Shown piece after piece: positions 16,443 to 62,706 of a DNA stretch of 62,706 nt. Below the pieces are notes generated by a model. The model was given only the letters and a program-made list of their open reading frames with translations. It searched no databases and was not told where the DNA came from. Position numbers and translations under genes: made by a program. How positions within the stretch are numbered: the first letter of the stretch is position 1; every line of letters starts with the position of its first letter. Source of the DNA: Rhizaria sp. SCN 62-66 (Eukaryota); NCBI GenBank assembly GCA_001724265.1, contig MEDY01000067.1, positions 62,001 to 124,706 of the forward strand, read 5' to 3'.

Positions 16443-16808
16443 ATGGCCGACGATCCTGCTGCAGCTGCTCGAGCAGCTGCCGCCGAGGCCGCCGCGTTCA
16501 CCTCATCGATAACTGCTGGGCCCGGCACTCACAACCTGTCTGCAACCGCGCATGTGCCATTAGCAGCGCCGATGCCGGCTTCCTTAGCGTCTCCTTTCGA
16601 GCACGCACTTCAATCAACGCAGCAGCGCCAACAATCGTTGGCATCCTCTGCTTCAGCATTCGTGCCGCAGCCGCAGCCACGTCCGCAGACGGGCTACGTC
16701 AGCGCGCCCATGATTGACACAGACAGCAGCAGCAGTCCTGCTGGCTCCAGCGACGCTAGCTTTGCCCCATCTGCGACTGCTGCGGCAGCTGCTGCGACAG
16801 CTGCTGCC

Positions 16809-16845
<37 letters not shown>

Positions 16846-32378: not shown

Positions 32379-32418
<40 letters not shown>

Positions 32419-34011: not shown

Positions 34012-35622
34012 AAAAGCTAAGCAGGCGACCAGACGAAACGCTCGTGAATGCTGTGACGGTGTGGAAAAGCGAGTTTGGGTCTGGACGGCAGAACGCTCTG
34101 GAGGGGTGTAATATCAACATATTGACAGATTATTTAAAGTTAGCATTATTTAAGGAGAGAAAATAACAAACATTAATCTAAATATCACCTTAATGACGTG
34201 TATAACGCAGGATTATCCTCGCAAGATCTCGACTCCAAGACGAAATAGCTCAAGCTGGACCACAGCAGACCAATACCACCGCAGCATGACAAGTGCATAA
34301 TCATGGCATAGTCATGCGCCACTCAAACGCGTACTTAAGCGGGTCTCCTCAAAATTGAGGTTGCGTGCAAATGTAACCAATGAGTATAACAAGGCGAATA
34401 TAGTTGGTCGAAGACAAAAAGATAATGTATTTGCAGAACATCGAAAACTACAAGTATCGACTGAATCTGAAAATGATACTCAACCGGTAGAGTAGCACTT
34501 GTGGTTGAGTGCGCATATCGATATTGTTGCAATAAATCAGAGACAATAGAGAACATACAATTCTAAATAGAAATATAAAGCTAGAAATTTTGACAAAAAC
34601 AAGGTCGAGGCGCAGCATAGAGATAATTTCGCACGCTGCTTTTGACACTGAGTCAACGATATTTGTGTGTGAATAGATGACAAAAGGATCCTGCATGACC
34701 CAGAAACTGGTAGCATCATCATCGTACACCACAAAACAGTGCAGCATGCGCATTTGTAAACATAAGATGTACAATTACCCGTATGCAAACGCGTCGAAAG
34801 AAAAAGTTAAGATCGTCTTAACAACGTGAAAAAGAAAGTTGAACCCAAACCAAGAACTAGTAGGTCGATTTGAGACAACTTTAGTTTGACCGTACGACTT
34901 GAACAATAGATACTATTATGAGTCGTACAAATAAAACGAAGAAATGACTAATCAAACGAAACTTCATAACAACGACTAATAAGTGAACTATTCGTTCCTA
35001 GGCAACAAAAACATAGCAAACAATCAAAATAGTGAAAATACATCTTGAAAAAAACATGCGGAAAAGACACGCTCACAAAAGCGACAAAGAAAGTGGCGCA
35101 AAAAGACCGGAAACATGAAAGGATTGTGTGTCATTATCACAAGACAGTGGGTGCGGTGTGGTGTGGTGTGTTGCAGGATTTGGTTTAGAAAGAATGCATG
35201 AACTTGAGTGGCGCAAGCTTTAGACTCAAAAAGATCAACACACAGATTATGACACACATGTCATGTGCACTTATTGAAGCTTCGATGATCAAACAATTCT
35301 TAAACAGACAATAAAATTTCCAACAATGATCACAATGATACTCATTGTGGGGGCTCATACGTGCTAACAACTTATTTAGTCGTACAAACAAGAAACACAA
35401 AGGTTATCTACCTCATAGAACATTCCCAAAAGACACTTAAACAACAAATGCAAGACATACGATGTCACCAACTATGGTCAAGCGATACACTGAACGTGTG
35501 TAGCATCACAGTGAATGGAGAAAGAAGAAAAAAAAGGACAACAGTCTACGTGTGCAAATTGGGTGTAGTAACGCAGCTACAACAGCAAGCAATCACAACC
35601 AAAGATCAGTATGGGTTTTTCT

Positions 35623-38600
35623 TTAGTCTAAGGACTTAGACGGCGCTGTGAGATCCACAACAACCATTGGGTCATCAGTCACCTCACGCTCACGCCGCCT
35701 CGCCTCTACCCCCGCGATCGCGTCCTCGGCCGCGGTGCCAGCGTCGTTGGCGCCAAGCTCACGGCCATCGCCCGAGGCGCTGTTTGCAGCTGCAGCCGCT
35801 GCAGCCATCATTGCCTCACGCCGGTGCATGCCCGTTGCGACATCAGTACTTGCGGCCTCGTCGCGGACGAGATCGAACGTGCGAGACCAGGCTGGTGTAG
35901 CGCTAGAGCCCAACACGAGCACTTCATCATGGCTGCGGCGCTCACCAGCTCCAACCTTCTCACCTACAGCATCAGCACCGAGCTTGCCGCTCGCAGTAGT
36001 AGTGTGAGACTTGTTGAAACGCTTGCTGTCGGCAAGGGTCTTCCTGTCATCGCGCATCTTGTGCTCGCGGATCTTGTTTTGGCGCCACTTGCGCATGACA
36101 AGCTGGATGTCGTGGCCGAGAATGTAAGCCTCGCGTAGCTGACGACGGAGTGGCGCAAGCTGCATCTCTTCGCGTTGCAGCACCACAAACGCAGCAACAA
36201 CAACAGCAAAGAAGAAAATAACAAGCACGCAGATGAGAATGGTGGCGACAACCTTGGCCGTGTGCGACACTGTATCGATAAAGAGGAAGTTCGCAAGAAA
36301 GAAAATCATAAATGATGTGCCAAGCGATAAGAATTCCACAGCGCCCGGAATGCGATTCTCAAACGGCTTGGCAAAAATCTGCGCAAGAATGCACGCAAAG
36401 ATGAGCAGTGAGGCCATCATAAGCTGTGTGTGTAGCGCACCAGGGAAGAACACAGCAATAGCAACGAGCGCAGCCTTCCGGAACATTTCAAGAAGGAACC
36501 AGTAGTAGCGTGTGGGCTTGTAACCGCGGTACAGGAACGCCATCTGAGACTCAAAAACCTTCTTTTGTGAGCGTGTAATGTCAGACGCGCCCGTTGCCGG
36601 GGTTTGAATCAACGCGCGGTTGCGATACAAAATGGCCCACGCAAACAGCGGAATGCCGATCACCCAGAAAATAAGCATAGGGACGCCCAAGACAAGGATA
36701 AATAACATGTGCTGCGCCGAGTAGCAGGGCTCGCTGAGATCGCCGAGCATGAAGCTGGCTCCGGGGTCCGCTGCGCCACCAATACTCTTGCAGGAAAGCA
36801 CCATGAAGAATTGGCGAGTGATGTTGGGGTGGATCATGAACATGACGACGGTAATTGCAGTAATAACGTAGCCCGCGAACTCGGAAAAAACGTTGTTTAG
36901 TGCATGTTCTGCAGCATAAAGCTGCTTACGCATTTCAGCGCGCGTAAGCCGGGGTTTCACTGCCTTTGCGCGCTGCTCACGCGCAGCCTCGTACATTCCC
37001 TTGCCCTTGTCCTCACCATATGTAGTGACATACCACATGAGCTGCTTGTGTGCCCGCACGCGCTCAATCGCACGCTCGCGGCGGATGTTTAAATCGCGCA
37101 AAACTTCAGCCTCGTACAACGTCTCGGCAGGCTCGCACGAAACAGCAAACGCGTTTTCCATATCAGCTGCGTCTTGGAGCACGTTTGCGATCTCATAGCT
37201 TGACTCGGTCGAAGCAACGCGCTTTTCAGCATCTGCCTTAATGAGAGCGTCGTCAAAGTCGCCCTGGCTAGTGCGGTAACGGTTAAAGAGAGCAATCCAT
37301 TCTGCACGCACAGTCAGCTCTTGCGCCTTCGTGCGTGTCGAGGCTGCAAGCTCAGCTGCGTAAGCTCCCTCTGCAGCGTCGGCGTTGTCAAGGCGGGCTC
37401 GCATGTCCATGGCAAAGTCATCAAGAATGAGACTGAAATCGCGCGATGCCTGCGGTGCATACTCGCGCAAGTCCACCGCCACGCCGTCCTCGTCTACAAA
37501 CACTGCGTCATCAGCCAGCAACGCGGAGGCTGCGGTCAGGCTCGAGACAGAACCAGATCGTGATAGATCGAATGAAACGCCGGTGTTAGAAGTCTCGGCA
37601 CTATCGAGTAATGTTGCCACTTTGGTGCTGTCGGTATTTGTGGAAGAAACACTCTCGGAGAGAGACGTGCAAGAGTTTTTGCTTGCTGTAAAATCATTGG
37701 CCTTGCGGAGACTCCTGCGCTTACCAATCCGAACAGACTTAGCCGTATTACTGTACGTAAGGCGCAGAGTATCTTGGTGTTCGGTGTCGACATCACCGTC
37801 AGTGAGTGTGTGTGACTGCGAAACGACTCCGCTAAGATCGTCTTTATGATCATCGTCTTCAACAGCATCGGTGAAATCGTTATGCCTGAACTCAAGCTCA
37901 GACGCTGTAAACTCCGCAGGTGCCACGGCGTCTGCACTAGCAACAAGAGTGTCAACAATGCGCTCGATAAAACCATTATTGTCAGTGTTAGTAATGTTTG
38001 AAACGGAAGAAGCTGTTAAGTGCGGAAAAGCGCGCACCGCGCGCTCGCTACGCCACGCCACCTCGTCATTTGCGGCAAATGCGTTCGTGTTGCCGCCAAC
38101 GTTACGAACACCCGATAGAGAGCTCTGTCGGTGCAGATGTGTGAGCGAAAATGATCCAAGCTGAGATGCAGATGGTGAACGGTCACGTTGCGGCTGCGCT
38201 AAAGGACTATCGTTATTGGCCGCAGAACGAAGAAGTGAAAATGAACCAACGCGCGACAGCTGCCCAGTGCGGCTTGCACGCGCCCCGTATGCAACAGTCT
38301 GCGCACCTATGTGTGGACTGTTTTTGTGGTCGTTGCGACTGTTGATGGCAGCATCCGGCACGGAGGTGAATGCGGGGGACATCGCAGGACTGTTTCTCGA
38401 TCCAAATTCAGCGTTGCCACGCGTGATGCCGGTGATGGTTGTCGTTACTGTGGGGACACGGAGGCTGGGGCGCATGAACGGTGAGTTCGCTGCTGCTACA
38501 AGCATTGCCTGGCGCTGACCGTCACGGTCTAAAGCGAATGACGTGCTTTCACCGGTGATTGTAACAGCTCCAAAAACTGGCGACGCGCGGGCGCTGTAAA

Positions 38601-41600
38601 GACCAGTAGATCCTAAGCCGAGTTTGGGGCTGCGATTAATCGCTGCGTCACTCGCTGTGGTAGAAACAGCAGTACTCATGTGGGGCGCGTTGGCGATGAG
38701 TGCAGGTGAAACCTCAAACTCACCAAGAGCGTCATCCTGTTCCTCATTTGCTGCATCGTTGTCTGCACGGCTGTGCGCAGGTGGGCGCACAGGTGGGGGC
38801 AGCGGGGCCCTTACGACATCGCCCGCAGAGTTGGTCATGCGCGACTTTGGAATCATACGGCGCTTCTTGCCAGTACTGGCAAGAGCTGCGCCACCATGGC
38901 CGGCGCCGTTGCCGTTATCACTTGTGCAAACAACGTTGCTTATACTGCCGCGCTGCTGGTTAACACCAGCACCTGGAGAAGACACTTTACTTCCAAAGCT
39001 ACCGCGGCGCAACGAGCTTGCTGTACTAGGCATTGAGGCTGTATCGGGATGGGTCTTCATATGCGAGCTTGCACCATGTACAACTGCCTTCCCAGTGACG
39101 GGATCGGTACCAACAAAGCTTTCGACAGCAATGCCGTCCTTGTCGTCAATGAGATCCCACACAAGTGTGTTTTCGTTTGCCATCTGCTCACGGCGTTGCT
39201 GCAACTGCTCACCACGGTCATGCTTTTCACGGTTCTTGAGCTCAACAATGACTTCGGCCGACAAGGCGCGCTCCTCGACAGCGCGTTTCATCAGCTCCTT
39301 GCGGTACCGGCGACGCGTGCTAAAGTACATTGGTACAAAGACCATAGTGGGGAGTAGAACACCTGCCAGCGGCAGCAGCATAATGCTGATTGTGGTCACC
39401 CAGAAAGGCTGCACCGCAGGGTTTTCCTCTAAGAAACAATCAAGAGACAAAAACGCAGTACCGACTCCGCCCGCAGTGTCAGTAGTATCAAAGACGTCAG
39501 CAAGGAAGCCAGGCCACTGAAGGTCGTAGCGTGCGGCAATAGACATCACCTGCAAACCGGAAGTGGCGACCTTGAGCAGCAGCGGTACAGCGGGCGCGGG
39601 TAGCTCATTCATGGACTGCTTACCGTCAATAATCTGTTTCCACACCAGCACAGTGCAGACCGCAATTGCACCAATAATTGCCAGCACAAGGAGGAAGGTA
39701 CGTAAAGCGGGTCCATTACAGCGCGCACATTCAAAAGATGAGCTCTTGCCATATCCTGGGAGGCAGATCGCGCATAGGTTGCCGGTGTGGCCTTCAAGGC
39801 ACACATCATGTCCCCGGCAGGCGCTATTAATACACAGCTCAAACGATGGCGTTGCAAACCGTTCGAAGTTCGCTTTACGCAATAATCCGTCACCTGTTAA
39901 CACAGGTGACCCGTCCTTCGACAATAACATCGCTGAATTTGTCGTAAGTTGCTCAACCACGCGCTGATACAGCGCTTCGCTTGAGTTCTCGAGTGAGTAC
40001 GCACCAGATGCGCTGGGATACACATCGATGTCAACAACTGCAACCAAAGCATATGCATCGCGCAAAGAAACTGATGTGTCTCCGCCATTATTACGTTTCG
40101 CAAGCTCTATATTAGAAATAAATTCGTTGCTCTTGTTGCCAGTCTTATTGGCTGCACCATTTTTAGCGGCCTCCTCAGCAGAAAGCTTCGCATCCCTAAG
40201 CTCACCTTCGGTTAAAAACTCAAGTCCTACAAGCACGATACGGTCCAGTGGCAAGTCTGAGTTGTCGTAGAGGAGCTTTGTAACTGTGGCACGAGCTGCC
40301 TTGCGTGCTTCCTCTGTTGAACTAACTGCGGGCACATACAGCCGTATGCGAACCACACTATCACGCTCATGACGAATCACAGAAGGCGCGTAGCCTGTCA
40401 GGGACTGAATGTTGAAGATTGTTGTTCCAGGCGAAGTACAATCGCCGCCAAGCATGCATTTTGTGCACACGCCGTCGGCATTCAAGTACGTGCCAACCGT
40501 ACAACGGCAGAACGTGTAGTCCTCGTTGCTCTCTGCTGCAAGTGGACACGCCTCACAGGCCGAAGAGCCCTCAAACTGAGCAAACGTGCCAGGCGGGCAC
40601 TGTGTGCATGCACCGGAGCGCTCACCTGAAAAGGTACCACGCGGGCATACGCCACATGACTGCGATCCAAGATCAGAATAATGGCCGGCGGGACAGACGG
40701 TGCAGCTGGTTGCGCCAGTGGTGTTGGAATAGAGACCGGGCGAGCACTGGCGGCACGCGGTCTGCGACCACATATCATTAAAGTAACCCGTCTCGCATGG
40801 AAGGCACATAACGTCAACGCCGTACTGGCCAGGCGAACATTGCACATACGACAGTAAGATGTTTTCAAGAGACATTGTGCCGTAGCGCTGAAGCAGTGTA
40901 ACTGTACGCTCACTAGCAGAGCCAGTAGGTGTGATGCAGGTCACGCGCTCATGCGGCCGCGTGGTGTCGTGAGTAACGTTAAGGCAGTTTTGTCCACCGA
41001 CCATAATAGTTGATGCTGTTGCACCAAAATTGTGACCTGTGAGCTCAATTGTGTTGCCACCTAAACGGTTACATTCGCGGATATATACATCAGACACACG
41101 GTCGCAGCCGCGAATGCCAGAAATCGTGGGACTTGCGTATGACAGGCGGTTGCGCGACTCGGTACGCTGCGAGCCAGCCTTTACTGTGACGGACAACGAC
41201 TCACCGGCGCCAACAGGCAGTGAGCATGTAAAGTACGTGTTGTTTGCGCGTTCAAGAGAAGTGCACTGACGACCGCTAATAATAAGCGACAACGGCTCAA
41301 GGAAGCCAGTGCCAGTAACCGCCAGCCGAACATCACCACCATCGGTGGGGCAGCCCGTGGTGCGACCGTTGAGGATGTCATCTGTTACGCAGCCGTAGAC
41401 AGACGTGACCTCGGGAATTTGCGGGTACGAATATCTGTCACTAGACACTGTACAGCGACCTGCAATGCAAAGTCGGAAGCGCAAGTCAATTAGGTTCACG
41501 CGGTCTTGAGTATGACACGCAATAACCATCGTGTATCCGCTGTACAACTCTGACATAAGGTGATTAAAGTCGCATATGTACGGGAAATCAGTCTCTGTTA

Positions 41601-44600
41601 GCGCCTCGCCATAACGCATTGTAATTAGCTGCGGCCGCTCGAGATAAAAGTTGCTTACGGCCAGAATAATATCCTCGCCAAGTGAAGTTTGACTAACGTA
41701 TTCGTCGGTCATTTGCGTCAGACCGCTGATTGTCACGCTTTGCAGAGTCCTTGGAATAAACGCTGACATGGGGTAGGTCACACGCACACGCTCATTAATA
41801 GGTATTTGCTCCATATCAATTGTGCCGCGTGTGCCTTGCCAGTCCCAGTTCCAGCGCGTGCAGTCTGGCTCGCTGCGGCCGTACACGGTCACGCAGTATT
41901 GAAGCGATACATAAAGTCCCTCACCTTGTCCCGGAGACAGCTCACACGAAACGTCGTAAAAATTGAAGCCTGCTGCCGCACGCGCAGCTTCAGTTGCCGC
42001 AGTCACCTCAACATTTGTGCACTCATACTGCAGCATTGCGGGGTCGTCATAAAGCGCCTTGTCAGGGTTGAGATAGCGCACACGACTAAAGTATGGCTCT
42101 ACAAGACCTGCACCAGCGCGTACGGCGAACTTAATGCGCTGGCCACCAGCTGTGCTACTCGGCTTAAAGATGTTCTCAACAGAGTCAAAGAGCGCATTAC
42201 CAGAGGTCGCGTAAGGAAGATATGGCACAGTGGTAACGAGCGGAACACAAATATAACTACCAAACGTGTTCACACACTGTGACTGAGTACCGTGCAGCGC
42301 TGTGCAATTAACAAAGTAGCGGCCATTAAAGACTGTCGCGTCGCATTCATTAATATCGGAGCATGTGGGCTCAGCGGGCGTCCACTGGCGTGTCGAACTA
42401 CACGTGCGAATAAAAGTATTGTTACCGCTGCTAACAGAAAATCCGGGCTTGCAATTGTAAGTAGCCGTAGCGGCAAGGCGTGTGGGGCCCTTAGATGTAA
42501 GAGCGTCCCATGTATACTCGATTGGTAGCGCATTATCAATTTCAATCCGTGAAATGGCACCACAGTCAATCGGGAGACAACGTGGCGGGTCAATTGGCAG
42601 CCAGCCTTGGTCGCGTGACCCACAAATGCGGGTGTTGGCAACAAGGATATCGTTATTGTCGCGTGTCTCGTAACCTGGTCCACAGGTGTACGTTGCTACA
42701 GTACCATACTGTGGCGTTGCGGCGCCATTAATGTTGAAATACGTAATTGAAGCGACGTTACTTGTGCCTGTCAATGTGCTACATTCGTTGATAATGCACT
42801 GCGGTAGCGTGACAGGTAACCAACCGTTTGGCGTGCATTCGCGACGGCCCACCTCGATTGTGGCACCGGCAACAGTTGTAGTAGGCAAGTAATACTTGGT
42901 GTCGATGTCAACGCCGGGGTACATCAGATTAAAGCCAGAATTACAGCGATACTCAATGATGGAGTTGTTGGAAAATGCGCCGTTGACACCAGTTGTGATC
43001 TCCTGTACCTGTCCGCTGGGAAACACAGCTGGAGAAGTACATTGGTATGGCTGGCAAGTGCGAGGCGCTCCAGACCAATTGCCGTTGGCCATACATGAAA
43101 TGCTGTTGCCCTGGGGTGTAACTGTTGCGCCGTACGCGCATGTATAGGTTGCAGTAACGCCGTATAAATTCAACAGCTCCGCAGGCTCCTGCTTGATTGA
43201 TCCGTAAAAAATTGACTCAAGCGACGGACACGGCACTGGCTGGCAGCGCGGTGCAAGTACTGGGAGCCATCCCTCATCGTACACGCACGTCCGCGTGCGC
43301 GAGCCATTCGGGTCAACCCAGCTGTAACCGTCAGCACAGCTATACTCGGCGACCGTATCCACAAAGAAGAACCCGGTAGTCTTATCAGCCGTTGTGACCT
43401 TCCCGTTAAGCGAAAAAACGATCGGCTTCTGAGTTGACGTGTCATGTGAGATCTGTAAACACATGTTAGTGCGACACACCGGCGGAGTGCCACTCCATGT
43501 GCGGTCTGCACGGCACGTAAGAGTGAGACTGCCCGAGCCAAGAGTGTGGCCTGGCAAGCACTCATAAGTTGCTGTAGAAAGATAACGACGCATACCGTTA
43601 GGTGTCGGGCTATAGATTGGCTGGAGTGTGTTGGCACCCACAGTTAATGCCGGACAAGTAACAGCCATGCACGTGGGTGCAGTGGTTTGCGACCAACCTG
43701 AGGGCGTGCAGCGCAACGATGCTGAGGTGCCCGAGGATTCGTAACCTTCAGCGCATCCGTATGCAAGCACAGCACCATACGTTGTTGCACCACCGTCGTC
43801 GCCAGTGACCGAGACCGTCGGCCCAGTCACGGTCTTATTGTCCGCAGCTGGCGCCACGCCACAGTTGTGAATTACGCAGGACGGCTGTGCCTCACTCCAG
43901 CCAGCAGCTTGGCACGTGGCACTCCAGCTGCACGGTAGTGTCGCACATGTCACCACACTGCCAGCACTTGTCACGAGGTCGTATCCCGTCTCACAAGACG
44001 CAGTAGCGCGGGAAAGATATGCCATCGCACCAAAGCCGTTGTTGTCGTAGATTGTGTTGCCATGAGTAAGCTTTGGCATTGCACCGCAGTCAATGAACAT
44101 TACGCTGATTTCGCTACTCGTGACAGGAAGGAACTCAATTTCGCTGGAGTACTCAAACCTAAACCGCGGCTTTACCGCGCCTTCCACAGGAACACCGGCA
44201 CCGTTAACCGTCTGCTGCCAGCAGCGCACCCAGAGTGAGATTGCATTGACCGCACTGATTGTAATAAGGAATGAAGCAGTCTCGTTAACAGCTGTCCATG
44301 ACGTCTCTGCGGGCACTGTTGAGCTTGAACCGGATTGGCGCGCAACGGAACAATTGGCAAATGCCGAGTTGGTTGACACGCGCACCACAGTCAACTGGCC
44401 AACACCCGCGATTGCGCCCAAGGGCAGCACGCCCAGCTCTATAAGCGCGGCCTCGCGTGCATGCAGTGTTGATGGTAGGTTGCGCAGCTCGAAGCGATTT
44501 CGCGCTGAAAATACGCCCGTGATGTGCGTACTTGCAAATATCGTGCTCGAATCACGAGGACCCAGTGCCACTGCAATGTAATGTGTGACCGTGCTGCAGA

Positions 44601-50600: not shown

Positions 50601-53600
50601 CAACATCGTACAGGCGCGGCAACGCCGATACGTGCAGTAAACTGCAGTCTGGTGCAACTTGAAAGAATGTCGTGCGCGTTGCGTCAAAATGGACTTTAAC
50701 ATCGCTTGCGTCGATGACGCTTGAAAGCGACGAATGTGTAATTTCTGCCGTCTGCCGCCCGTAACGACCTGCGCTGTCAAGGCGTGTCAGCACTCGGAAA
50801 AACAACTTATTATCTGCAGACACGCTATAGATTACAATCTGTGATTGATAGCCCGTGACTCCAAGGGCTGCAATAGAATGCGAGTCGAGCACTGCCGCAA
50901 GCACAGTCGCCACAGGCGAAACAATGTTTGAGTTAAGGGAAACACGGAAGATGTACTGAGACGTTGTTGCACCCAACGCCTTCATCGGCCCTGTGCTATC
51001 GGTGGCAGCGACAAAGAGGCACTGGTCTGAAAGTTGGCTAAGCGTGTTGATGTTGGACTGAGGGCAGAAAGTCACAGCTGTGGGCAACAAATCCTTTTGT
51101 GTAGTCACCGTCTTACGGAAAAGTAAAGTTGGCGAGCTGTCTGCAATGCTAATAATATCGCACAAGATAACTTTGCTGCTGTCAAGGCTCGGTCCGCACA
51201 AAGCAATGGTTTCGGACATCGAGTCACCTGTAATTGCAGTAACGCGCACATTAGACGCGATGTTTGTCAGAGGACCAAGACTGAGTGTACCATCAGTACT
51301 TATCAAGATTTGACGCAGAGATGACGACAGCGTAACAATGTACAGTGATGCAGATGCAGCAGTCTGCCATTGACTAAAGAAAATTTTAGCGGTATACGGT
51401 TTGTCGTTGGCGCCTGGATATTGAGTCCGCGGTGCCCCATCAATAGGCAAAAGTAGAAAACCGGTGACCGAGAGTCCACCATCGCCAAACCGCTCGACAA
51501 GCACAACACGGTTATTGTTAGTATTAATGGCAATGTGCCTGCCGTCAGCAGCAACAGCAATTGAGCACTGCACAACAGTGCTATCTATTGTAGGCAGCAA
51601 TGTAGCAAATCGTGAAGATGACGAAACCCAATTACCCCACGGGGTGTTGCCGGAGCTGTTTGCTGGATTCTGTTGCACGCCGCTGGCAACAAGAAGGCCG
51701 TGTCTCATCATAGTGTACGTTACTAATGCAACGGGGTCAACCACAGAGCACACGGGCTTGCTATCACTGGGCTTATTTGGCATTATAATGATGCCAGGAT
51801 TGGACGTGACCTGGAAGTCGGCGCCAAACTCCCAGTTGCGCTCCACACCAGGTGAGCCAATGTGCAACGGGTTGTCGATAACGTTAAGTGCAGCGTTAGC
51901 ATAAGCTACGGTTGCAAAGTAGCCCCGTGCAGAAGCAAGCAGGGTGACGTTCATCAAGCGCTCAAGCCCAGAAAACGTGACGTCACTGTACTATGACGCA
52001 ACTGAAGTCGCAGTGATCTCATACATTATGCAAGACGTTTTTAGTGTAGAAGCGCAAGTGCTCCCACGAATCGATGTGTCGCTTCCGTGACTGCAGACAA
52101 GGGTAATTACTGCGGCTGTGCACACGTTGGAAGTTGTCGCTACAGCATTTGAATTACTAAACTCTGTGAAGGTCTCAATTGAAGTCGTACTTGCACCATA
52201 AGCAAGCTCAGGAGGCAAAACAACGATCAAGTAACCAGTTGTGCTCAGCTTAACGCGCATACGCCAACTCAGATTAGTAACACCATCGGAGCCGTGCTGA
52301 TCAATTGGCGTGTCCAAGGCAAGCGAACTCGCGCGGCCTAAGAAATGCACACGAGACAGCACGCCATCCGCTGATGAAACGCGGACAGGAACTACCTTTG
52401 AAGAATACCTTGGCAGTGCAGGTGCAGTAGCAGGAAATGTGGAAGTAAACTTAGCGACATTGCGAACAGTATCGGTCGGAAACTTAATTGTCACGCCGAA
52501 TGTCACAGCCTTACCGTAGATCTCCGGTAAGGGGTTTAAGTACGTGAGCTGGTATGTAAATGTGAAATTGCCGGCGGTCACAAAAGACGCAGGTCCACCA
52601 ATACTTGTGGAAAAGTGCATGTCTAATCCGTACGCAAGACCAAGCACAGGATCAAGTTGCCGCGATACAAATGAGCTGACAAGGGTTGACGCTCCAATTG
52701 TAAGTCCCACTGCGTCACCGGTGTAACTTAGTGTCAGTTTAACGTTATCAGTGATAAAATAAGATGATAACACAACTGTAGACATCATAACACGCACAGT
52801 CGTATTAATTTGGCCACTCTTGTCAATAGGACGCACGCCTTGCCCACGAACAGCAAATGTGACAATCGGCGCACGGTTCGAGGCAGAATGTGAGATGTCT
52901 GACGCCGCCACCTCAAGGTTCACGTACGAGCTCGTTAAAGGCCGCACGGGCGTGCTAGGTAGCACCATAACGCGTGGATCCGTGTACACAAGGAAATAAT
53001 ACGGAGTTGCGGCACTTGCATCAGTAAACATCGATGTTGGCAGAGTTGCGTTTTTCACGAATACATGAATGGTCGTATAAGGCTCAACAACCTTCGTGAT
53101 AGTGTTAAAAGCAATTGTAAAACTGCAACTAGTCCCGGCTGTGGCAGTAGCACCTGCAAACAGCTTAAGCTCACCGGTTAGCACGCTTGCACCACCAGTG
53201 CACTGCGTAATCGAGCCACCAGTAAGTGTGATGACACTGTTCTTGGTTATTGGCACAGGTAATGTCACAGCGATTAGCAAGTGCATTATAGCCGACATCT
53301 GCCCTCCCCGAAATCCAACAGAAGACCCAGTCGGAAGGCCAGCAACCTCGAGCTCGTAGGTACCACGCACAAACGCGTTAACGTAGTCACTGTTGGTTGT
53401 TGTTTGTGTCGTATAGACAATATCATCACCGACATCCTTTGTTACAGGATCAAGAAGGCGCATTGTAACCTGCTTGTTTGGCGCGCAGTAAAGTCCATAG
53501 ATACTCATTACCTCAGTAATTGAAGTGTTAAAAAGGTCAAATGTCATATAAATCAGCGGAGGTCCAGTCGCGGTAACCACAGGATCCAAAGACAACCAAC

Positions 53601-56600
53601 CAGTGGTCGTTCCTGGTAATGATGTCACAAGAGAATTTCGTCCCAATGTTGGAGAATAGATACATGCTGCGCTTATGTCAAGCTCCACAATATTTGGTGC
53701 CAGCTGTGCGTCATAGTTGTAGCTAACTGAGAAGCTCAATTTAGGGACGTAGATGTTATTGACGGGAGCGAAAGGCGTATAGGCCGAAACGATTATGTTC
53801 GTGTCGTACAACACTGAACTACTCGAGACAGTGCCAAAGAACTCAGCTTTCACTCCGTTTGGTGACAGTAGCTGCACGGTGATTGTGCCGGAAGATACGC
53901 GCGAGGGCAATCGCAGCGTAATTTCACCGCCTTGTGTGCTGTCGCAAACTAACGCAGAGGTATAAGTTGAAGAAAGTTCAAAATATCCAGTATTGTAGCC
54001 TCCGGAGACAGGCTGTAGAGACTTGACACCCAATACGGAGTCACGCAGCGTAACATCAACCGCACTATTCGCCGGCATAAAGCTTGACAGAGGCGTTGAG
54101 TGAGTGACACGCACTTTGTCGACACGTTGCATTGTAAACGGCTGCTTGCATTGTGAGGGAAGTACGGCTCCAACATACGTTTTGCTACTTCCAGTACCAC
54201 TGGTCGTCCATGTGCCGACGTCAACCAAAAGCTTGCTCGCAACACTTTTAAGTTTAGCTTGGCCACGCCACAGCGCGCGATCATTGGGAACACTGACGGT
54301 GAGCGTCAGCGCTGGCGACTTAGCGCGATCCGTGTCATACTTGACGCAGGATTTAAGGGTGATTACAGTAGGCAAGGATATGGTGGGAGTGGTTGCAGAT
54401 AGACATGCAGCCGTCAGCATTGAAACAGTGCATGTGAGCCGCTCAACTGGCGCGCTTTCGGTCGCCGAGGAAAACGAGCACTTTGGAAGCGCGCAGGCAG
54501 GACCAATTGCGCCTGAACTTAACCAGGTAACAGAACCTGCGTCGTTTGCGCAGTCAGCTAGTGTGGCATCCGTGTTGGAAAGCTCAAAAGACAAATCAAG
54601 ACTGGTTCCCATCCTTGCTGTTGGCGCAAAGCCAAGACCCGCAGTGATGCTCATCGCAATGCTGTCAGCACTTGGCACGGTCAGGGGGGCAATCGTTAAA
54701 TCCTGAGGAGCTTGAGGCGTCTTAAGCGTAAAGCGAGCAAACTTTTCGCCGCTAATGAAAACGTCAATCCACACGGGCAGCACAGGAAACTGTGTGTGTG
54801 TGGTGGCAATCTGCAGTTTAAGAATGGTGTCGGCAGCAATAGTTGAGCACGCTCCCAGGGACGCAACGTTGGCAGCGACGGTAGCTGTACAGTTTGAGCC
54901 GTCTGTCTTGACAACAGCCACAGCCGTCAACGCAACAGTTCCGCCAGCAAGAAAATGTGGAGACTCTGTTGATAACATTACCTGGAAGCTTGAGCTGGGT
55001 TGAATCAAGATACGTGTGTACGCTAGCGTAGCGTATGACCTAAACACAAAGTTGTTATCAGTGCCAGATACAGTGATGGTTGACGGAGCTTCTAAGGGCC
55101 CAGGGAGACTACCCAAGTATGAGTTTAGAGCTTGTACGCTATTATACGAAATAAGCCTATCGAACGGCTCGTAACCTTCAATTGCTCGCGTCTCTGGAGT
55201 CGTATATCCTGAAATCGACAGGGGAACGCTGCTAGGATTTTTCACCATGTCATAAATGGCAATTGAACTACGCAGAAGTGCGTAAGGGGCAGTTGAGCCA
55301 ACAATGGTGGATACTGAAACATTGAAAAAAGTTGCCCCAGTGGCATTGCCGGTACAAACATTAACAACGCAACTCAGGGAGTTAAATCCAGATTGAGTAA
55401 TCGTAATCGCTGTCGGGTAGACCAAAGTGCTAGGGAGCACGATAATATGCTTGCTTAGCGCCTTAGCTACATTAACAGTGTAGGTCAGTTCAAGTACAAT
55501 ACCAGCAGCACCGGAGCCGGCGGGCTTAACCGAGAGAGACGAGCTTGGTACACCAGCCGAAGGACGCTGCACCGCAAGCGGCAGCCGGCGTACAGGCACA
55601 AGACCAGCAAACTTAATATCCTGTGTTGAGCGCTTGTCCCAGACATGGGTGTAGTCAAATAAAACATCCGTGCGCGTGTACACGGCAGTTGACACAGTGC
55701 CATGAGGCGTCATCGCGCAGCCGCCGTTTAGCGAAAATGGCGTCTGTACATTGCATAGTGCATCCGCTGAAGGCTGCACAGACAGAGATAATGCGCTCCC
55801 AGTTACAGCAACTGCAGACATAGTTGTAAGAGTAGTGTTGTCAAGTGCAGTCATCAAATTTGCCGCCGCGTTAGCTGGAATAAAGCGGCTCTTGGGGAAA
55901 TCAAGCACAAACACGCGCTGGCTGCTACTTGGAAGTTGTACTTTGCCCAGTAACATAGCCATTGAGGTGGTGGTACTGTTATTGACTCCGTCATCAAAGA
56001 CGGTCGATTGGTGCATGCTCAGCAGTGACGGCAGGACAAAGCTGCCTGTCATTCTGCGAGTGTCCTCATCGGAGAACCCGGCGGTCTTGCGCTCTATTGA
56101 GACGGAAAAACATGCGCCGCCAATCCGACTCAGGTAAAGACTGCCTTCACGCAAAACCGTAAGCCCGCTAACTGTAAACATGATGTCACCGTGTGTTATG
56201 GGGCTGTAAGTGCCGTTACACGTAACACCAACACTGTTGGCAACCCCTGTTACTGCTTTTGCGCAGCCAGTGTAGGGTGACGTTCCGCGAAGAGTGGTAA
56301 CGCTGATTGTCGCTGCTGTTGAGCTAAACGAAACAGTGGAGGGCTCCAAAGGGCACGCAGTATAATCATACTCAATGAAAACGGTAATGCTTGTTGTTAG
56401 GGCATAGCGCGGGGAAATTAAAAGCCGAAAGTTATACGTTGATTTTAACGTGTCATGTGACTCAGCGCTAACACCGGCCGGAATGGCGTAGAACAGAGGC
56501 AACAACGGGCCGGAAGTTGGGAACGGGCCGACACGACTTGTTGGAGACAGACCAGGGTTGTACGACCCAACAGTGGCAACAAAGCACATGTACGGGAGCC

Positions 56601-59600
56601 CAGTTGTCCAATAACTTGCATAGGCATCGCGATTAAGATAGGCAGCGTTAGTGCCAAAAAACTGCGAATAGTCTCCAAGAGTATTCCCCGTCGTAATGTT
56701 AAAGTTGTTTGCACTTATCGAGACTGCTCCAACGTTAGGCGAAGGACGGGTCGCGCTAATTGTCACGGAGCTATCGCCAATCATGGCACTGCTGCAAGCA
56801 GAAGAGAAGTTGATAATATATGTTGTTGCCTGAACGTAATCAGGGTGCAGCACTGAAATGGTGACGTACGGCGTAAACCGGATTGACTTATAAAGTGCAA
56901 CGGGGAGATCGCCAGTCACTTCATAACCAAAGTACTCGCCATAATACTCACTGCCTGTTGCGTACCATTGCTGCATCTTTGATTGATAGTTGATGGCATT
57001 GCCGAACGTGTTAATTAAGGCCGTGATAGCACCAGAACCAAAAAGATTGTAGCTGTTGGAAACTGTTCCCTGAATGCCATCGACCACAAATGTGTTGACA
57101 GCGTCCTTACTTGTCAACTGCGTGCATGAGCTTTTGTTCGAGGCAGAGATCATAGTACAGTGCTTCATCATCTCCGCAGATGTTGCTTTTGGTGCAGAAA
57201 TCAAAAATGAACTTGAAGTAATCTCAAAATTGAACGCATCTTGAGGCAATGTGATCATATACAAAACAAACTCCAACGTTTGAGTCACAAGAGTATTTAA
57301 GCCCGTTGCCATGGAAACGCCTGTTACAAAAGCGCGTTGCGTATACCGCGCAGCAATAAAAACTTCTGTTCCAATATTAAAAAAGTCTGTTAAAGGTGCC
57401 ACTGCAGTCTACCCAGCAAAAGAAAACGAAACTGATGCGTGGACATTGCCGGGGACGCACCTGTGGATATCCTCCGCGGTAAACGCAGTCGGGCAGACTA
57501 AGTTCACTGAGAACCAACGATACTCAGGGACTCCCGCATTGCAACGCAGAACAATAGATTTGCCCGAGGTTGTGACTGTCCAGTCGGTTGCCACCTCTGG
57601 CTGAATCTGCCCAGCAGATGGCGCGGTAGACGTTTTTAGCTTTGCGCCAGAAGGTTTGGGGCAGAAGCAGTCGTTGGTATCGGTGAACACAAGCTCGTTG
57701 CTCGATGTGAGAAATTTGGGAAGAATCATGTTAAGCTCATATGTCAACAAGAACAGACTGGCAGCAGCGTTATCATTTGAGAGCGTGCTCAAGGTTGTAT
57801 CAACAAGGCCTACTGAAAACGCTGTCACGTACGAGACGGGCAGAGCGGTAGTTTGTGGGATTGCAGTTAGGACTGTTCCATAGACTGTTGAAACAATTTT
57901 GAAACATGAAGAAAACGCATATGATGTCGCCGCCATAGACGGACTAATTTTAACTCTGAAGGTCGCCACCACGGCTAAGTCAAGAACGGTGAAGTCCATG
58001 TTGAAGTTAAGCGAAGACACTGAGGAACCAGCTGCGTCTTGTAGCTGCAGTGCGGAACACGTGCTAGAGAGTGCGAAAGATTTGCTTGTGCGGCCGGCAA
58101 AGTTGACACCAAAAATATTGATTGGGTCTGACTGGTAATCACTGCTGTAGCGTCCTGTGTAATACGAGCCTGACGTCATTCGCAGAGCTGTTGCAGGTAC
58201 GGGCGTCACGTCGCTGACAAACGTATACATCGGAAGGTCAATAACTGATTGATAGAGATTGACATCACTACTGGCAAGAGAGGGAGGTCCTACTGGGCTT
58301 CCTGAGAGGATGAGTTGTAAGGAAAAACACGATGAGCCAAGAGACTGTGGCCAGTTAACCGATCCTGCTGCCGTGGTCACAGTTACACCAGAGATCACAG
58401 CGTTACATGCGCTGCCCTTCGTACATACAGCAGGTACATTAAAAGTAATCGACGGGCTATTCGCGGAATTTAACGTGAGTGAACCAGATTGCACAATGGC
58501 GCCTGCAAAGTTCACATTGCATCCTGAAGAAGTCAAAATAAGATTGACACCATTACCTCCATTACCACCAATGACTGTGGCAAAGGTAAATGTTAAAGAG
58601 CGAACACGGGTCGTGGCGATGCTTGTCGCGGCCACAGATGTCGTTGTGAGAGTGAACGTTGTCGCCTCGTACGCCAGCTCATACGGCCCGATCTGGGTGT
58701 TGCTAGTTGAAGTAAAAGTATATGATCCAACTGTCATACGGAAGAAACTAGGGCCAAACCCAGCTGGATTATTTGTAGACACTGCGGAGGTTGTGGAAAA
58801 AACATTAGCTCCACTCACGGTAACATAATAGCCAAATGTTGACATAGAACCCATTGAAATCGTCAAGGTCGAAGTGCTTGATATCACAGCCGTCACTGAT
58901 GCGGCCCCGAGTGAGGATGAGCAACTAAGCGGCACTCCGGACGCAATTGAAGGTCCTGTCGTTAAGAAAGACATAGACGATAGACCGGCCTGAGAAGATA
59001 GAGGCAAAATGATGATGGTGATACTGTCCAGGAAATTGATTCCGAGATTTTCATAACCTGTGCTGTAGATATAGTAGGCCAGCTTAACCTCACTCAAATC
59101 GTTCATAACAATTACCATGACTGGGTCTGATACATACGATAAAGCGACGGAAATCATGGATGTCGAAGGACTCTGTAGAAGTCCAGAGGGCTCATGAATG
59201 TTCTTTAGAACAAAAGTAGCGAGGCCGTTTATACCAGCAGTAACAACACGTGCTGCCATTGCATCACACGAAAATTCACCTTGACCGGCGACAGTGCACT
59301 TGGTGCCCGTTCCTGCCTCCGTCGTGGAGTCAGAACCGTAGGAGAGTCGAGAGTCCTGTAGCTTAAAAACAAGATTGAATGGTGAGCCCGGAAGGAGAAC
59401 GACGTGCATGTAGATTGTAATAGTCACGAGCGTCGGTGTTGCCATCACAGAAGCAGGATTGATGACATTATTGACAAGAGTGCGTGAGCTTAAAACAGAA
59501 CCAAAAAACACGCCAAACTTTGGTTTCAGCTGCACATTGTCAAAGGGCTTAAGGATTTCCTCTGAGCCGTCAGAACGGACGAAAGAAAGCCGAAGATTTG

Positions 59601-62112
59601 CTATCTGTGACTCTGTAAAACATGTGTCCATCTGCGACTCAGTAAATCCAAATGTGCAAGTGACAATAATCCTGGACCACGTCAGCTTTGACATCACAGG
59701 TAAGCAGGTAAACTATAGCTTTGTCGAGGAAGCCGATGAAAATGAACAGGTCAAGCTTGTAGTGTAGGGCGCTGCCCCGGGCGTTTCAAATCCGTACTGT
59801 GCACTCGGACACAGGCAGCTATCTGCAGTTGAGAGGGCGAATGTACCACCAACCTGACTGGCGAGACTTGGCATAACAGAAATCTCGCGAGTAACCGTGT
59901 ACGAATAAGATGTGGCCGGGCTAGCCGTTGCATTAGGCAGGGCATTGGTGATGTGATAGTTCATCGCGCTCGGCGCTACGTTGGGGGATAGAGACATTGC
60001 TTCGCTCGCTGGATACATTGTGTAGCCACTGCTGGTAATAAGGAAGCAACTGAGAGGAACAGGCATCAAAGCATTTCCTGGGCGGACGTATAAAGTGATT
60101 GCAGGAAATTGGAACATTGTTATTGTGGGGATTGTAAAACTTTTTGTTGTAAGCCGTTCGCTGTAGCCAAGTTGTCCAAAGGTGTAGATACCAGCACATG
60201 AGCCTGTAATGGTGATGGTTATCGCACCAGCCACGGGCAGCGCCTCAGTGAGGCGCATACCACGGAATTGAATATCGCTTGACCAGACACGGTCAAAACG
60301 GTTCTCAAAATCATCTGATGCCACGAGCTGGTTTTGCCCAGCATACGAGGTAGGATTATAGTCGTATCCGAACGCTGGAGTACTATGTGCGACAAGGTTG
60401 AGATTGTAAGAAGTGTAAACATTTGCGCTTACAACTGTTACGGTGCCACTTTTCTCAGTGAAGTATACGCATCCGTAAGACACAGCATACTAAAGGTCTG
60501 ATGTGGATGAAGCAGTGACTATTACACCTTCAATTAACATATCATAATAATAGCCTGCTGTCGTCGCTCCTAACGAAAACTGGTAAGACGTGCTAGAATA
60601 TGAAACTCGCGAGATCCCAAATGCATTGCTGAAAGACAACGTGGTTCCACAGCTACCTGTTGAAGTAACCAGAACATTTGTGTTTGCTCGTGTTGCAGAA
60701 ACGTAAACACCAATCATGAGCGAAATGATACGAGTACGAGAAGATATACTTTTGACAATACAATCATAGACACTCCAATACACTCCAAACATATACTGTT
60801 CTGGATAAGTGGTATCACATGGATCTATCTGTTCGTAAATAAGCGTCTGAAAATCACTCCTCTGTTCAGCAGTCGTGTGCGTGTGATTGTGACTACCAGT
60901 ATTGCTGCTTACTGGAGCAAGGTTCTCGAGCTCCCCAGCAACTGATTCAATTGCGCAAATGGGTGTCTACGCAATCAACGGCTTCATAGTTTGGCGGCGC
61001 ATAAGATTCAAGCCAACACCAGTGCCAATGCGCAAACCTGAGCGAGAAGGGAGCAGCGCCTGCGTTTTCATGTCACTAGTTCTCGCTGACTAACTCGTGA
61101 CTTCAACTGCTGCATTCGGCTCGCCGCTGCTTTGATGTGAGGGATCAAGTACGGTTACCGTTCGTGACCAGCCATTAAAAGCTAACCGAAGACTCCTAGC
61201 AAGACTGCGATCACGGACATTCTCAGGGGGGTTCGAGACAATAACAGGAGAAATGTAAAAACTGAGTTTGCCTGCAGGGAGACCGATGCAGCGTAGCTCG
61301 ATACTGCGTGCACCAGGAATGCGGTTAGTCGCGCATCGCGTCCTTGCAAGGGCCTCGTTGTCACCGCTGTCAGTGATCAGCACCTTCGTCGCGGCCATGT
61401 CGTAGGTCAGCCGGCCGTTGCCGGGGAGCGTAACCGAGAGCACAGTGAGGCCCTCAGTGCGCATTGTCATGAGGCCACTCAAATCAAGCGCAGCGATGGT
61501 GTTGCCAATAACGCTCGCGCTCTCAGCAGGGCCGTCAGACGCGTTGTCATCGTGAAGCAGAGTGGCAGTGGGCTCAGTCAGCGGGGGCACAAGCAGCAGC
61601 GCGTCGGCAACCGAGGCGGTGGCGGGGGTCGCAGCGCCGTTGGCCGTGAGCCTGAGACATTCAGACAGCACGCTCGTCGGTTGCCTAAAGCCCCCAAAGG
61701 CGGTGAGATAAATGCGGACATCAGAAACTGTGAAGGCGGCCGTAGCGGTGCGAAGGCAGCGGACAGTATTAGGCGTTGTAAAGTCGACAATGCAGCCCTT
61801 GGAGGGGGACGTGAGCGAAATGGCGGTCAGGTTGAGCTGCTACAAAGATGGACAGGACCAATCAAGGGTCAGCGCAGTGTCGACAGTCGCGTCAAGGCCA
61901 AAAACATCGACTCCAAGCGCCACGGACGTGTAACCGAGAGTCGGATAGCAGACTGTGGAGGAGGAGGTGAGTGTGGCATTAAACGTCAGAACACCTCTAG
62001 CGACAGAAGCCGTTGCGAAAGAAGAGCCTGTTACACCAGTAGTCTGACCTAAGATAGCCATCGTAAGCCATAAAACAACGGCCCATAGAGACATGAGCCA
62101 ATATCGGATCAT
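35623..62112 (-). CDS. Giant intronless cell-surface polytopic membrane protein, 8829 aa, with 7 in-frame TAG codons
   Basis: ORFs 61840..62280, 61090..61671, 60490..60792, 59713..60483, 57409..59697, 51991..57402 and 35623..51957 are all in one frame. Every gap was read codon by codon; the only interruptions are TAG at 61840, 61090, 60967, 60490, 59713, 57409, 51991 (lowest coordinate of each codon). ATG 62112 gives a signal peptide MIRYWLMSLWAVVLWLTMAILG. Final stop TAA 35623-35625. Confidence 0.85.
36185..39705 (-). other. Multi-pass membrane region (about 9 TM) of the giant protein, split by a loop of about 800 aa
   Basis: Three hydrophobic helices at about 39700-39325, a long polar loop, then six more with HPNITRQFFMVLSC and FLYRGYKPTRYYWFLLEMFRK, motifs typical of protist Cys-rich polytopic surface proteins. 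Confidence 0.75.
40420..42357 (-). other. Ca-binding EGF, IPT/TIG-like and Cys-rich (ephrin-receptor-like/GCC2-GCC3) repeats of the giant protein
   Basis: DINECD...CVNTFGSYIC (about 42357-42247); PEVTSVYGC...GGDVRLAVTGTGF and PTISGIRGC...GGNTIELTGHNFG (IPT/TIG); CSPGQY, CETGYF, CSPGLYS, CPAGHYS, CPRGTFS, CPPGTFA repeats. Confidence 0.8.
42361..44088 (-). repeat. Eight tandem sushi/CCP domains within the giant protein
   Basis: Eight units of C...(A/I)xYxC.xG(Y/F/H)...C...W...PxC, e.g. ATYECLPGHTLGSGSLTLTCRADRTWSGTPPVC and ATYNCKPGFSV...RTCSSTRQWTPAEPTC. Confidence 0.85.
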
Positions 62113-62706
62113 TGCAAGCCGTGAAACGAATTGCTGTGGGGTAGAGGACACAAGACAGAATCCAAAAGGAGACGCAGGTCTGCGCGCGCGAGGGGCGGAA
62201 AGTGATCTGTTAGAGCACCTATCGACGGTAACCCGGTGGAAATGAGGACAAAAAGAATTAGAATTGTGTAAAAAATGCATATGAAAAACTGTTTGAAATC
62301 TGAACCATTAAATCCTCATATTATCGCATGAAATATGGCTTAACATCTCGAGCTCGGGTCCTCCTTTATCCGTCCATGAAGGAAGATAAAAGCTTGACTT
62401 TTATACGATAGATTGAGTTTTTAAGAGCTGAAAGACGTATACGCGAATGGATAAGGAAGGGGTTTCAATAATAACATAAGGGAGTTAACGGTGCACGAAG
62501 AATTAGCTCAAGAAGAGGTGTTTCATACTCGTCATCGTCGGAGGGGGCTGAGGCAACGCCTAGCTCGCAGTGATATTTTGAGAACCCCAACGGAAGGGAC
62601 GGGGCATGTGGTGTCGAAGAGTGCGCAACTACAATGTGAGATTGCTAACCATTTGCGCACAAACACGACGGCGATATTGTGTGATAATAGTGTTTATGAA
62701 TGAAGT

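Follow-up and report, generated by a model that had tools for sequence, protein, structure and literature searches.

The DNA considered here is a 62,706-nucleotide stretch of contig MEDY01000067.1 from Rhizaria sp. SCN 62-66 (hereafter the window, to which all coordinates refer). Its minus strand carries, from 62112 to 35623, a single reading frame of 8829 sense codons followed by TAA, which extends over 26.5 kb without an intron. A direct scan showed the frame to be bounded by a TAA at 62310, upstream, and by its terminal TAA at 35625. All seven stops found in frame between these bounds were TAG, with neither a TGA nor an internal TAA, and the other five frames contained 242, 334, 335, 566 and 587 stops. 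Complete freedom from TAA and TGA, compared with hundreds of stops elsewhere, cannot be a product of chance, and the region is one real intronless protein-coding gene. With TAG read through, the predicted product has 8829 residues and a calculated mass of ~941 kDa. A preliminary description of the window had proposed this hidden gene of the same length, and the stop counts (TAG only in its own frame, 242-587 stops in the others) bear the proposal out. The standard code splits the gene into eight pieces of 90, 249, 40, 158, 258, 767, 1805 and 5455 residues; the earlier view that they form one protein also stood, with a leader in the first piece only and transmembrane (TM) helices in the eighth only. 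The coding sequence and the in-frame TAG codons of the window are given below, where P-numbers denote proteins from public searches, L001 is a Joint Genome Institute (JGI) contig, X4 is a sequencing run containing a related strain and X7 is a polyA metatranscriptome.

35623..62112, minus strand: whole coding sequence, 8829 codons plus TAA, no intron, ~941 kDa (frame scan, translation)
61840..61842, minus strand: in-frame TAG, residue 91; S, S, D and D in homologues (frame scan, alignment); kept in L001
61090..61092, minus strand: in-frame TAG, residue 341; N in P0005 (frame scan, alignment); kept in L001
60967..60969, minus strand: in-frame TAG, residue 382; Q in P0014, N in P0007, S in P0008 (alignment); kept in L001
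60490..60492, minus strand: in-frame TAG, residue 541; S in P0008 (frame scan, alignment); kept in L001
59713..59715, minus strand: in-frame TAG, residue 800; L, V and T opposite after manual realignment on the following Cys
57409..57411, minus strand: in-frame TAG, residue 1568; spanned by the X7 RNA-library contig 57305-57568
51991..51993, minus strand: in-frame TAG, residue 3374; CAG (Gln) in the X4 strain
1126-1128, plus strand: in-frame TAG in the open reading frame (ORF) 289-2835
16374-16376, 16875-16877 and 21618-21620, plus strand: in-frame TAGs in the PHD-finger ORF 16332-22703

UAG is translated in this organism, and the earlier reading of TAG as a sense codon was upheld by the homologues, the substitution pattern in the X4 strain, its CAG allele and the other ORFs. 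Homologues aligned without gaps across the TAG codons at residues 91, 341, 382, 541 and 800, which have conserved neighbors on either side, as in DWSCPSL-[TAG]-QLNLTAISL of the window against DWSCPSL-S-QLNLTAISL of a homologue; each TAG thus corresponds to a single residue and does not lie in an intron. Among the 33 coding differences listed between X4 and the window over residues 22-3400 (91 further ones were unlisted), 20 were synonymous and 13 non-synonymous, an excess indicating that the part before the last TAG is subject to purifying selection in this frame. One of the X4 differences changed TAG3374 to CAG. Moreover, two other long ORFs of the window contain in-frame TAG, one codon in 289-2835 and three in 16332-22703; the TAG at 16374-16376 lies two codons past the first ATG and may belong to an untranslated 5' region. 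UAA terminates translation: the ends of the neighboring DMC1 and SmD2 genes, both anchored by homology, and of the giant gene were all TAA and none was TAG. UGA probably also terminates, and it ends four long ORFs of the window whose ends are not anchored by homology.

The integrity of the gene was examined at the level of its start, its assembly and its transcription. An alternative in-frame ATG is located at 62280, 56 codons upstream of the one at 62112, and is unsupported as a start since four homologues begin at a Met aligned with 62112. In public searches, P0003, P0004, P0006, P0010, P0011, P0016 and P0056 matched parts of the frame at 100%, from which it follows that the gene is publicly recorded in fragments only. 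The independently assembled L001 (2124 nt) was identical to the window over residues 57-763, and a search of residues 1-5000 against metagenome DNA returned a single locus, identical to the window. The 10-kb query stretch 51501-61500 occurs in bioreactor and wastewater metagenome runs, with 0.93-1.00 of its words present in three DNA runs from two studies and 0.75 in X4 (runs with small word shares, X5-X14, were excluded from habitat claims). Contigs of the related strain in X4 tiled 42707-62570 with a gap at 61037-61197. The GC content at third codon positions was 0.51 in the giant gene compared to 0.75-0.87 in DMC1, SmD2, the 6775-9516 ORF, the aspartyl-protease ORF and the PHD ORF. Eleven X7 contigs lie along the gene, eight of them listed, and the one at 57305-57568 crosses the TAG at 57411 with no codon change listed. 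The preliminary description would have been contradicted by a lack of expression upstream of 51991; four of the eight listed contigs lie there, which speaks for transcription, although these are assembled metatranscriptome contigs for which DNA carry-over is possible, with no clean silent control stretch for comparison. They show neither strand nor transcript ends and cover parts of the gene, the uncovered parts being uninformative. Apart from this ambiguity of the RNA, a further point weighs against the single-gene interpretation: among the relatives found, none covers residues 1600-3766, and continuity there rests on the open frame together with the synonymous excess.

The predicted protein consists of a leader, a very long ectodomain, two clusters of TM segments separated by a loop, and a C-terminal tail, arranged as follows.

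62047..62112, minus strand: signal-peptide-like leader, residues 1-22 (hydropathy); P0005, P0007, P0008 and P0015 start at an aligned Met with a hydrophobic stretch
47791..62046, minus strand: ectodomain without recognizable family, residues 23-4774, Ser/Thr/Val-rich (Pfam, composition, alignment)
61054-61071, minus strand: M-x-T-Q motif, followed by A/S-L/S in homologues, residues 348-353; invariant in six aligned N-terminal sequences, with poorly conserved flanks
48553..49572, minus strand: stretch previously called propeller-like, residues 4181-4520; non-significant WD40-type matches only
44098..47790, minus strand: ~10 tandem units of ~120 residues with a Cys pair each, residues 4775-6005 (alignment, model)
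42361..44088, minus strand: Sushi/CCP array, residues 6009-6584 (Pfam; Cys/Trp spacing)
42241..42357, minus strand: calcium-binding EGF-like motif, residues 6586-6624 (E 0.011, below the Pfam threshold)
40882..41352, minus strand: IPT/TIG, residues 6921-6992 and 7012-7077, with one further stretch reported (Pfam)
40438..40839, minus strand: Cys-rich growth-factor-receptor-type repeats, residues 7092-7225 (Ephrin_rec_like, TNFR_ELAPOR1)
39718..39834, minus strand: DUF7630 juxtamembrane Cys-rich domain, residues 7427-7465 (Pfam)
39334..39699, minus strand: TM cluster 1, residues 7472-7593, two strong peaks and one weaker segment (hydropathy); conserved in the family
36889..39333, minus strand: low-complexity loop, residues 7594-8408, ~800 residues, presumably cytoplasmic (hydropathy, alignment)
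36184..36888, minus strand: TM cluster 2, residues 8409-8643, ~6 helices (hydropathy); weak PF06011 match at residues 8445-8644
35626..36183, minus strand: C-terminal basic/acidic tail, residues 8644-8829, 186 residues, presumably cytoplasmic by its likely orientation

The N-terminus (MIRYWLMSLWAVVLWLTMAILG) is a typical leader and its only hydrophobic stretch, at residues 4-22, agrees with the signal peptide previously assigned to the first piece. Behind it, no family was recognized in the first ~4750 residues by Pfam, by profile searches against the PDB, by hhalign against the downstream unit or in the Atlas. Pfam scans of residues 1-3000 and 2801-5800 gave no family at E <= 0.01, the Atlas neighbors of residues 1569-3373 were unannotated clusters only, and residues 3481-3860, the other stretch earlier described as propeller-like, had no Pfam family even at E <= 10. 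The best that residues 4181-4520 produced were non-significant matches to WD40 (E 0.14), WD40_Prp19 (E 0.16) and Beta-prop_RIG_2nd (E 0.21), and a structure model of residues 3451-4640, built from a three-row alignment, had a mean predicted local distance difference test (pLDDT) of 29.8, too low for use. Significant support for a beta-propeller was thus found in neither stretch. Ser and Thr make up 20-30% of residues 23-4774, and Cys is sparse. Within this part, a conserved N-terminal domain at residues 23-300 is common to five relatives, and the M-x-T-Q motif could be a processing or sorting site. Comparison of the protein with itself by BLAST revealed only the Sushi repeats, a repeat linking 5306-5399 with 5562-5659, and a weak one (E 8e-4) linking 764-973 with 1480-1681, where a C-[FL]-C-P motif is present in both copies.

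The tandem units that follow are, with moderate confidence, Ig-like beta-sandwiches. The AlphaFold2 model of residues 4761-5960, based on a seven-row alignment, was all-beta, with a mean pLDDT of 50.5 and 70-76 in its best blocks. Its top Foldseek matches were arrays of multiple Ig/MG domains in central-apparatus proteins, mastigonemes and alpha-2-macroglobulins, the mastigoneme chains standing at ranks 9, 20 and 24; the TM-scores of 0.08-0.14 were very low, as expected of flexible arrays. With VIA-align, the units at model positions 710-858 and 859-984 resembled the Ig-like domains of intimin, integrin alpha, MSP/ASH and HAP2 D3 (Z 7.2-10). A profile of the ~120-residue unit found nothing below E 0.33 among PDB sequences, and its comparison by hhalign with the alignments of residues 451-1200 and 3451-4640 detected no further copy in the window protein. 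The claim that the N-terminal ~6000 residues match no family stands for the first ~4750 of them and is refined for residues 4775-6005, whose fold is no orphan, being modelled as these tandem sandwiches.

The Pfam families recognized (Sushi, TIG, Ephrin_rec_like and DUF7630) are all located in the last third of the protein. Sushi (PF00084) scored 137.7 bits against a cut-off of 20.7 (E 1.7e-40) in seven stretches; six units fitted a C..C..C..W..C pattern search and two more were read manually from the Cys spacing, which agrees with the eight Sushi domains of the preliminary description, seven by Pfam and eight by Cys/Trp spacing. The EGF-Ca domain reported next to them did not hold up: EGF_CA (PF07645) reached 16.4 bits against a cut-off of 27 and covered only profile positions 1-29 of 43, and the motif has four Cys instead of the six of the consensus, albeit with D-I-N-E-C and G-S-Y-I-C present. 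Residues 6586-6624 are at most EGF-like. In comparison, the IPT/TIG domains and the Cys-rich repeats both exceeded the Pfam gathering scores, TIG (PF01833) with 50.0 bits against 20.9 in two stretches (27.9 bits for the separate stretch 6921-6992) and Ephrin_rec_like (PF07699) with 41.8 bits against 23.1 in three. By sequence, the closest solved relative of residues 6921-7471 was Chlamydomonas Mst1 (8tx1_A, E 8.2e-25), followed by ELAPOR1 (E 3.9e-9). DUF7630 (PF24633) passed its cut-off of 27 by a small margin (27.3 bits on a 251-residue piece) and also matched 7 of 25 relatives; a literature search found no paper under this name, and one on Ephrin_rec_like in protists gave no description of this giant-protein family.

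All strong TM peaks fall within residues 7472-8643. The first cluster has two, 7472-7490 and 7575-7593, and between them, near 7510-7530, a weaker segment that is conserved; the second has five, at 8409-8427, 8469-8487, 8559-8581, 8594-8612 and 8625-8643, besides a weaker peak around 8525-8545. These two clusters account well for the ~9 TM segments and cytoplasmic tail proposed earlier. Judged from the signal peptide, the order of three and then six TM segments, and the basic residues after 7593 and 8643, the N-terminus would lie outside and the loop and tail in the cytoplasm. Conservation peaks in the second cluster, where 22 columns are invariant in an alignment of 25 sequences; for residues ~7670-8050 of the loop, the relatives offer no aligned counterpart. 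The membrane anchor attributed to the last piece is present in the sense that the TM helices are there; it is not a plain anchor, as it shows a weak resemblance to PF06011, the fungal family of TRP-like channels, and is split by the ~800-residue non-conserved loop. PF06011 was recorded at E <= 0.01 in 11 of 25 aligned family members, at best with 2.3e-6, and was precomputed on 6 of the 38 relatives of residues 8380-8700. Pfam scans gave no match of the TM domain to any other channel family. Membership of the second cluster in PF06011 is plausible but unproven, since the match recurs in 11 of the 25 members and stays below the cut-off in the window sequence.

Relatives of the protein were almost all metagenomic. 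Residues 1-1200, compared with 1.84 billion representative proteins, gave 14 matches, six being fragments of the gene itself and eight being relatives with 28-53% identity. For residues 3200-4600, the only matches were P0055 and the fragment of the gene itself, and residues 8380-8700 recovered 38 proteins with 23-91% identity, all metagenomic except one Amorphochlora protein and one EukProt entry. Long relatives carry precomputed Sushi, TIG, Ephrin_rec_like and DUF7630 domains, and relatives are colinear with the window protein from residue 4392 to ~7666 and again from ~8050 to 8760. Conservation rises from the N- to the C-terminus, from 28-53% identity (residues 1-1500) through 57% (residues 3767-5805, P0055) to 74-91% in TM cluster 2, where the closest relatives were compared. 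Atlas neighbors of the C-terminal part, at 0.75-0.86, serve as leads only. By these sequence comparisons, the gene belongs to a family of giant proteins whose distal ectodomain evolves fast and which is confined to a little-sampled lineage.

The organism, an uncultured eukaryote of bioreactor and wastewater communities, was placed mainly through its DMC1 gene. Two conserved genes were recognized beside the giant one:

24368-25966, minus strand: gene for the meiotic recombinase DMC1; three introns, TAA end (homology)
23070-23638, minus strand: SmD2-like small nuclear ribonucleoprotein gene with at least two exons, ending in TAA (recognized by eye from the translation)

Both genes have introns, which makes an intronless ORF of 26.5 kb notable in this genome. 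The best named matches of DMC1 were from Amorphochlora amoebiformis (78%) and Balamuthia (78%), and the best named match of the TM domain of the giant protein was from the same chlorarachniophyte, A. amoebiformis (29%). In the DMC1 tree, the window sequence clustered with Amorphochlora and Spongospora, the two sole named Rhizaria among the sequences used (FastTree with 109 rows, SH-like support 97; IQ-TREE quick with 40 rows, SH-aLRT 85). The lineage is possibly rhizarian.

Several other elements of the window were recorded. The minus-strand ORF 6775-9516 (913 codons, GC-rich, without a Pfam match) contains repeated G-P-G-P-x-Y motifs, which we take to recall the sperm-tail PG-rich repeats of flagellar proteins and which thereby hint at a flagellated organism. 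A 2510-codon ORF at 26581-34113 on the minus strand has no TAG, is extremely Ala/Ser-rich and has a hydrophobic segment near its end; its only match was a C-terminal eukaryotic aspartyl-protease (E 7.5e-5). The last ~136 bases, 62571-62706, belong to a high-copy element: the X4 depth is ~8 over the gene and 119 in the last bin, with single positions reaching 636, and several contigs break at 62570/62571.

The meaning of UAG, and with it the reading of the whole region, has to be weighed against several alternatives. The view that the standard code holds and that the region is a decaying pseudogene, a series of eight separate genes or a mis-assembly agrees with the fragmentation of the region in public gene calls and is otherwise hardly credible: a decaying or subdivided sequence should not keep 8829 codons free of TAA and TGA beside hundreds of stops per other frame, nor confine its stops to one codon type, its leader to the first piece and its TM helices to the last, nor align with homologues through the TAG positions, and the three DNA runs at 0.93-1.00, the X4 tiling and the identity of L001 all speak against an assembly error. 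It is also improbable, although less so, that UAG is a leaky stop, subject to programmed read-through, which would yield mostly short secreted N-terminal products and little full-length receptor. The uneven placement of the codon would fit such a mechanism. All seven TAGs occur within the first 3374 codons (the first 38%) and none in the last 5455, so that TAG makes up 7 of 85 'Gln-type' codons in the former part and 0 of 161 in the latter (Fisher p = 5e-4). In addition, P0005, the closest N-terminal relative (380 residues, 50-53% identity), stops one residue before the position of TAG382, and its gene may carry a TAG at nearly the same place. The TAG-bearing part of the gene (51991-61842) is also its least conserved part. 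Against leaky termination stand the frame after each TAG, which stays free of TAA and TGA, the predominance of synonymous over non-synonymous differences across residues 22-3400, the presence of TAG inside two other long ORFs, and the three gene ends checked (homology-anchored or well defined), which are all TAA. Moreover, seven successive leaky stops would leave almost no full-length protein.

As a sense codon, UAG probably encodes Gln, which together with UAA and UGA as stops would make a code of the NCBI table 15 type. The Gln assignment is favored by the CAG allele at residue 3374, where the T>C change is synonymous only if TAG is Gln, by the Q of P0014 opposite TAG382, by small or polar residues (S, D, N, Q) opposite the TAG sites in 9 of 12 cases, and by a Gln codon directly 3' of TAG in 4 of 11 cases, one of them within K-Q-[TAG]-Q-R. 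The frequency of UAG, ~1 per 1000 codons, resembles that in Iotanema spirale (UAG as Gln), where the codon is likewise rare, and not that in the rhizarian exLh, as reported for these two (PMC5304391). Pointing away from Gln, the residues opposite the TAG sites are mixed (S, S, D, D, N, Q, N, S, S, L, V, T), the L, V and T being found at TAG800 after realignment, and the DMC1 tree places the organism with the Rhizaria, whose known member with a sense UAG, exLh, decodes it as Leu in the same source (PMC5304391). It is therefore conceivable, but rather unlikely, that UAG stands for Leu as in exLh or for another amino acid; the gene model would be the same and seven residues would differ. Neither a tRNA gene nor any Rfam family was found in the 62,706-nt window, and a literature search on UAG sense codons in Cercozoa yielded no second rhizarian case. 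A sense UAG combined with a UAA stop is shared with I. spirale (Gln), exLh (Leu) and phyllopharyngean ciliates (Leu or Gln) (PMC5304391; PMC11687900), but the DMC1 of the window groups, weakly, with Rhizaria and with neither Fornicata nor ciliates.

The architecture of the protein has parallels in known surface systems, of which mastigoneme/PKD2 and polycystin-1 are the nearest documented ones. The mastigoneme protein MST1 of Chlamydomonas (PDB 8tx1/8wa2/9b4h) shares the Cys-rich module with the window protein (residues 7104-7191 and neighbors, with the E value of 8.2e-25 given above). As described, MST1 starts with nine Ig-like domains and continues with a Cys-rich domain of the growth-factor-receptor type, the tandem Ig-like domains thus preceding the module as modelled here, and MST3, a large extracellular protein with a PKD2-like TM domain, forms a channel with PKD2 and SIP and tethers the filament (PMC11015965). 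Those authors compared MST3 with human PKD1 and named seven more algal proteins in which a large ectodomain is combined with a partial PKD domain (PMC11015965). MST3 couples its very large extracellular part to a TM domain of the TRP-polycystin kind (PMC11015965), and the window protein would resemble it in such a coupling. Unlike the mastigoneme system, the window protein has everything in one polypeptide and adds Sushi, TIG and ~4750 residues of orphan sequence; no hydroxyproline-rich polyproline II region was noticed in the window translation, and its TM domain matches PF06011 weakly. The same layout from signal peptide to cytoplasmic tail is found in the fungal Pkd2/Flc proteins (PF06011; S. 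pombe Pkd2, S. cerevisiae Flc1-3), of which S. pombe Pkd2, a putative force-sensing channel, is described as having a signal peptide, an extracellular domain, a TRP-like TM domain and a cytoplasmic coiled coil (PMC6727746). In comparison, the match of the window protein is limited to the last ~6 helices, its TM domain is split by the ~800-residue loop, its ectodomain has ~7400 residues instead of a small ML-like domain, and it is not fungal. Animal receptors of the polycystin-1/PKD1-like and fibrocystin types also carry giant Ig-like or TIG-type arrays on a polytopic, channel-related C-terminus, for which a mechanosensory or adhesive role has been proposed. The likeness of the window protein to polycystin-1-type receptors is one of layout, an analogy and not membership: a Pfam scan of all 8829 residues detected no PKD, REJ, GPS/GAIN, PLAT or PKD_channel domain at E <= 0.01.

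With regard to function, the protein most likely serves as a long extracellular tether or sensor that is linked directly to a cation-channel subunit of TRP-like type, and contact or shear on the ectodomain would then be converted into an ion signal, as proposed for Chlamydomonas MST3-PKD2 and for polycystin-1/PKD2 but with all parts in one polypeptide. This reading is favored because the window protein joins the mastigoneme and Pkd2 themes in one chain; for the combined explanation, a real intronless UAG-sense gene that likely encodes such a tether or sensor on a TRP-like channel subunit, we consider the chances about even. The earlier labels of adhesin, prey or mate sensor, or mechanosensory receptor might each apply. 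A number of points weigh against a channel-coupled sensor. We infer its function from architecture; the PF06011 match of the window sequence reached 17.8 bits against a cut-off of 28.5 (E 0.0016) and covered profile positions 228-404 of 426; TM cluster 1 had no TRP match in Pfam; and a PDB search with the TM-family profile gave no solved relative at an E value under 0.0095, its matches being unrelated proteins at chance level. The Ig-like units come from a beta-sandwich model of moderate confidence, whose VIA-align scores are in the range that may reflect only a common arrangement.

The main rival accepts the same gene and protein and assigns to it a passive structural role, as an adhesin, a cell-coat component or an anchor of surface filaments; the polytopic C-terminus would then only anchor the protein in the membrane or direct its trafficking and would not form a channel. 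Such a role is possible, though we regard it as less probable than a sensor. It would suit the adhesion-type modules (Ig-like arrays, Sushi, TIG and the Mst1-like Cys-rich module), the last of which mediates filament formation in mastigonemes (PMC11015965), as well as the fast evolution of the distal part (28-53% identity against 74-91% for close relatives in the TM region) and the sub-threshold TRP match. The 22 invariant columns over 25 sequences in TM cluster 2, however, imply more constraint than a mere anchor needs, and PF06011 recurs in 11 of the 25 members. Going further than a tether or sensor on a TRP-like subunit, the protein would represent an undescribed single-chain class of tether plus channel, in which the ~7400-residue ectodomain gates a split PF06011-type pore directly, the ~4750 residues form uncatalogued domains, and the 5' bias of UAG is functional, for example by slow or leaky decoding that meters the ribosomes committed to the 941-kDa product. 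We regard this extended proposal as quite doubtful.

Overall, modules of the mastigoneme-PKD2/polycystin type appear to be joined to a fungal-type TRP-like membrane domain behind ~4750 unmatched residues. No new principle is involved: algae and animals are already known to possess giant surface receptors of modular build on channel-like domains, and the most interesting features are the unusual code and the ~4750 uncatalogued residues. The gene illustrates how rare stop-codon reassignment hides very large genes, and the window likely adds a new lineage to the very short list of eukaryotes with a sense UAG and a UAA stop. The unmatched residues are a source of new extracellular domain folds, and the protein is a test case for the coupling of surface contact to ion signalling in unicellular eukaryotes.

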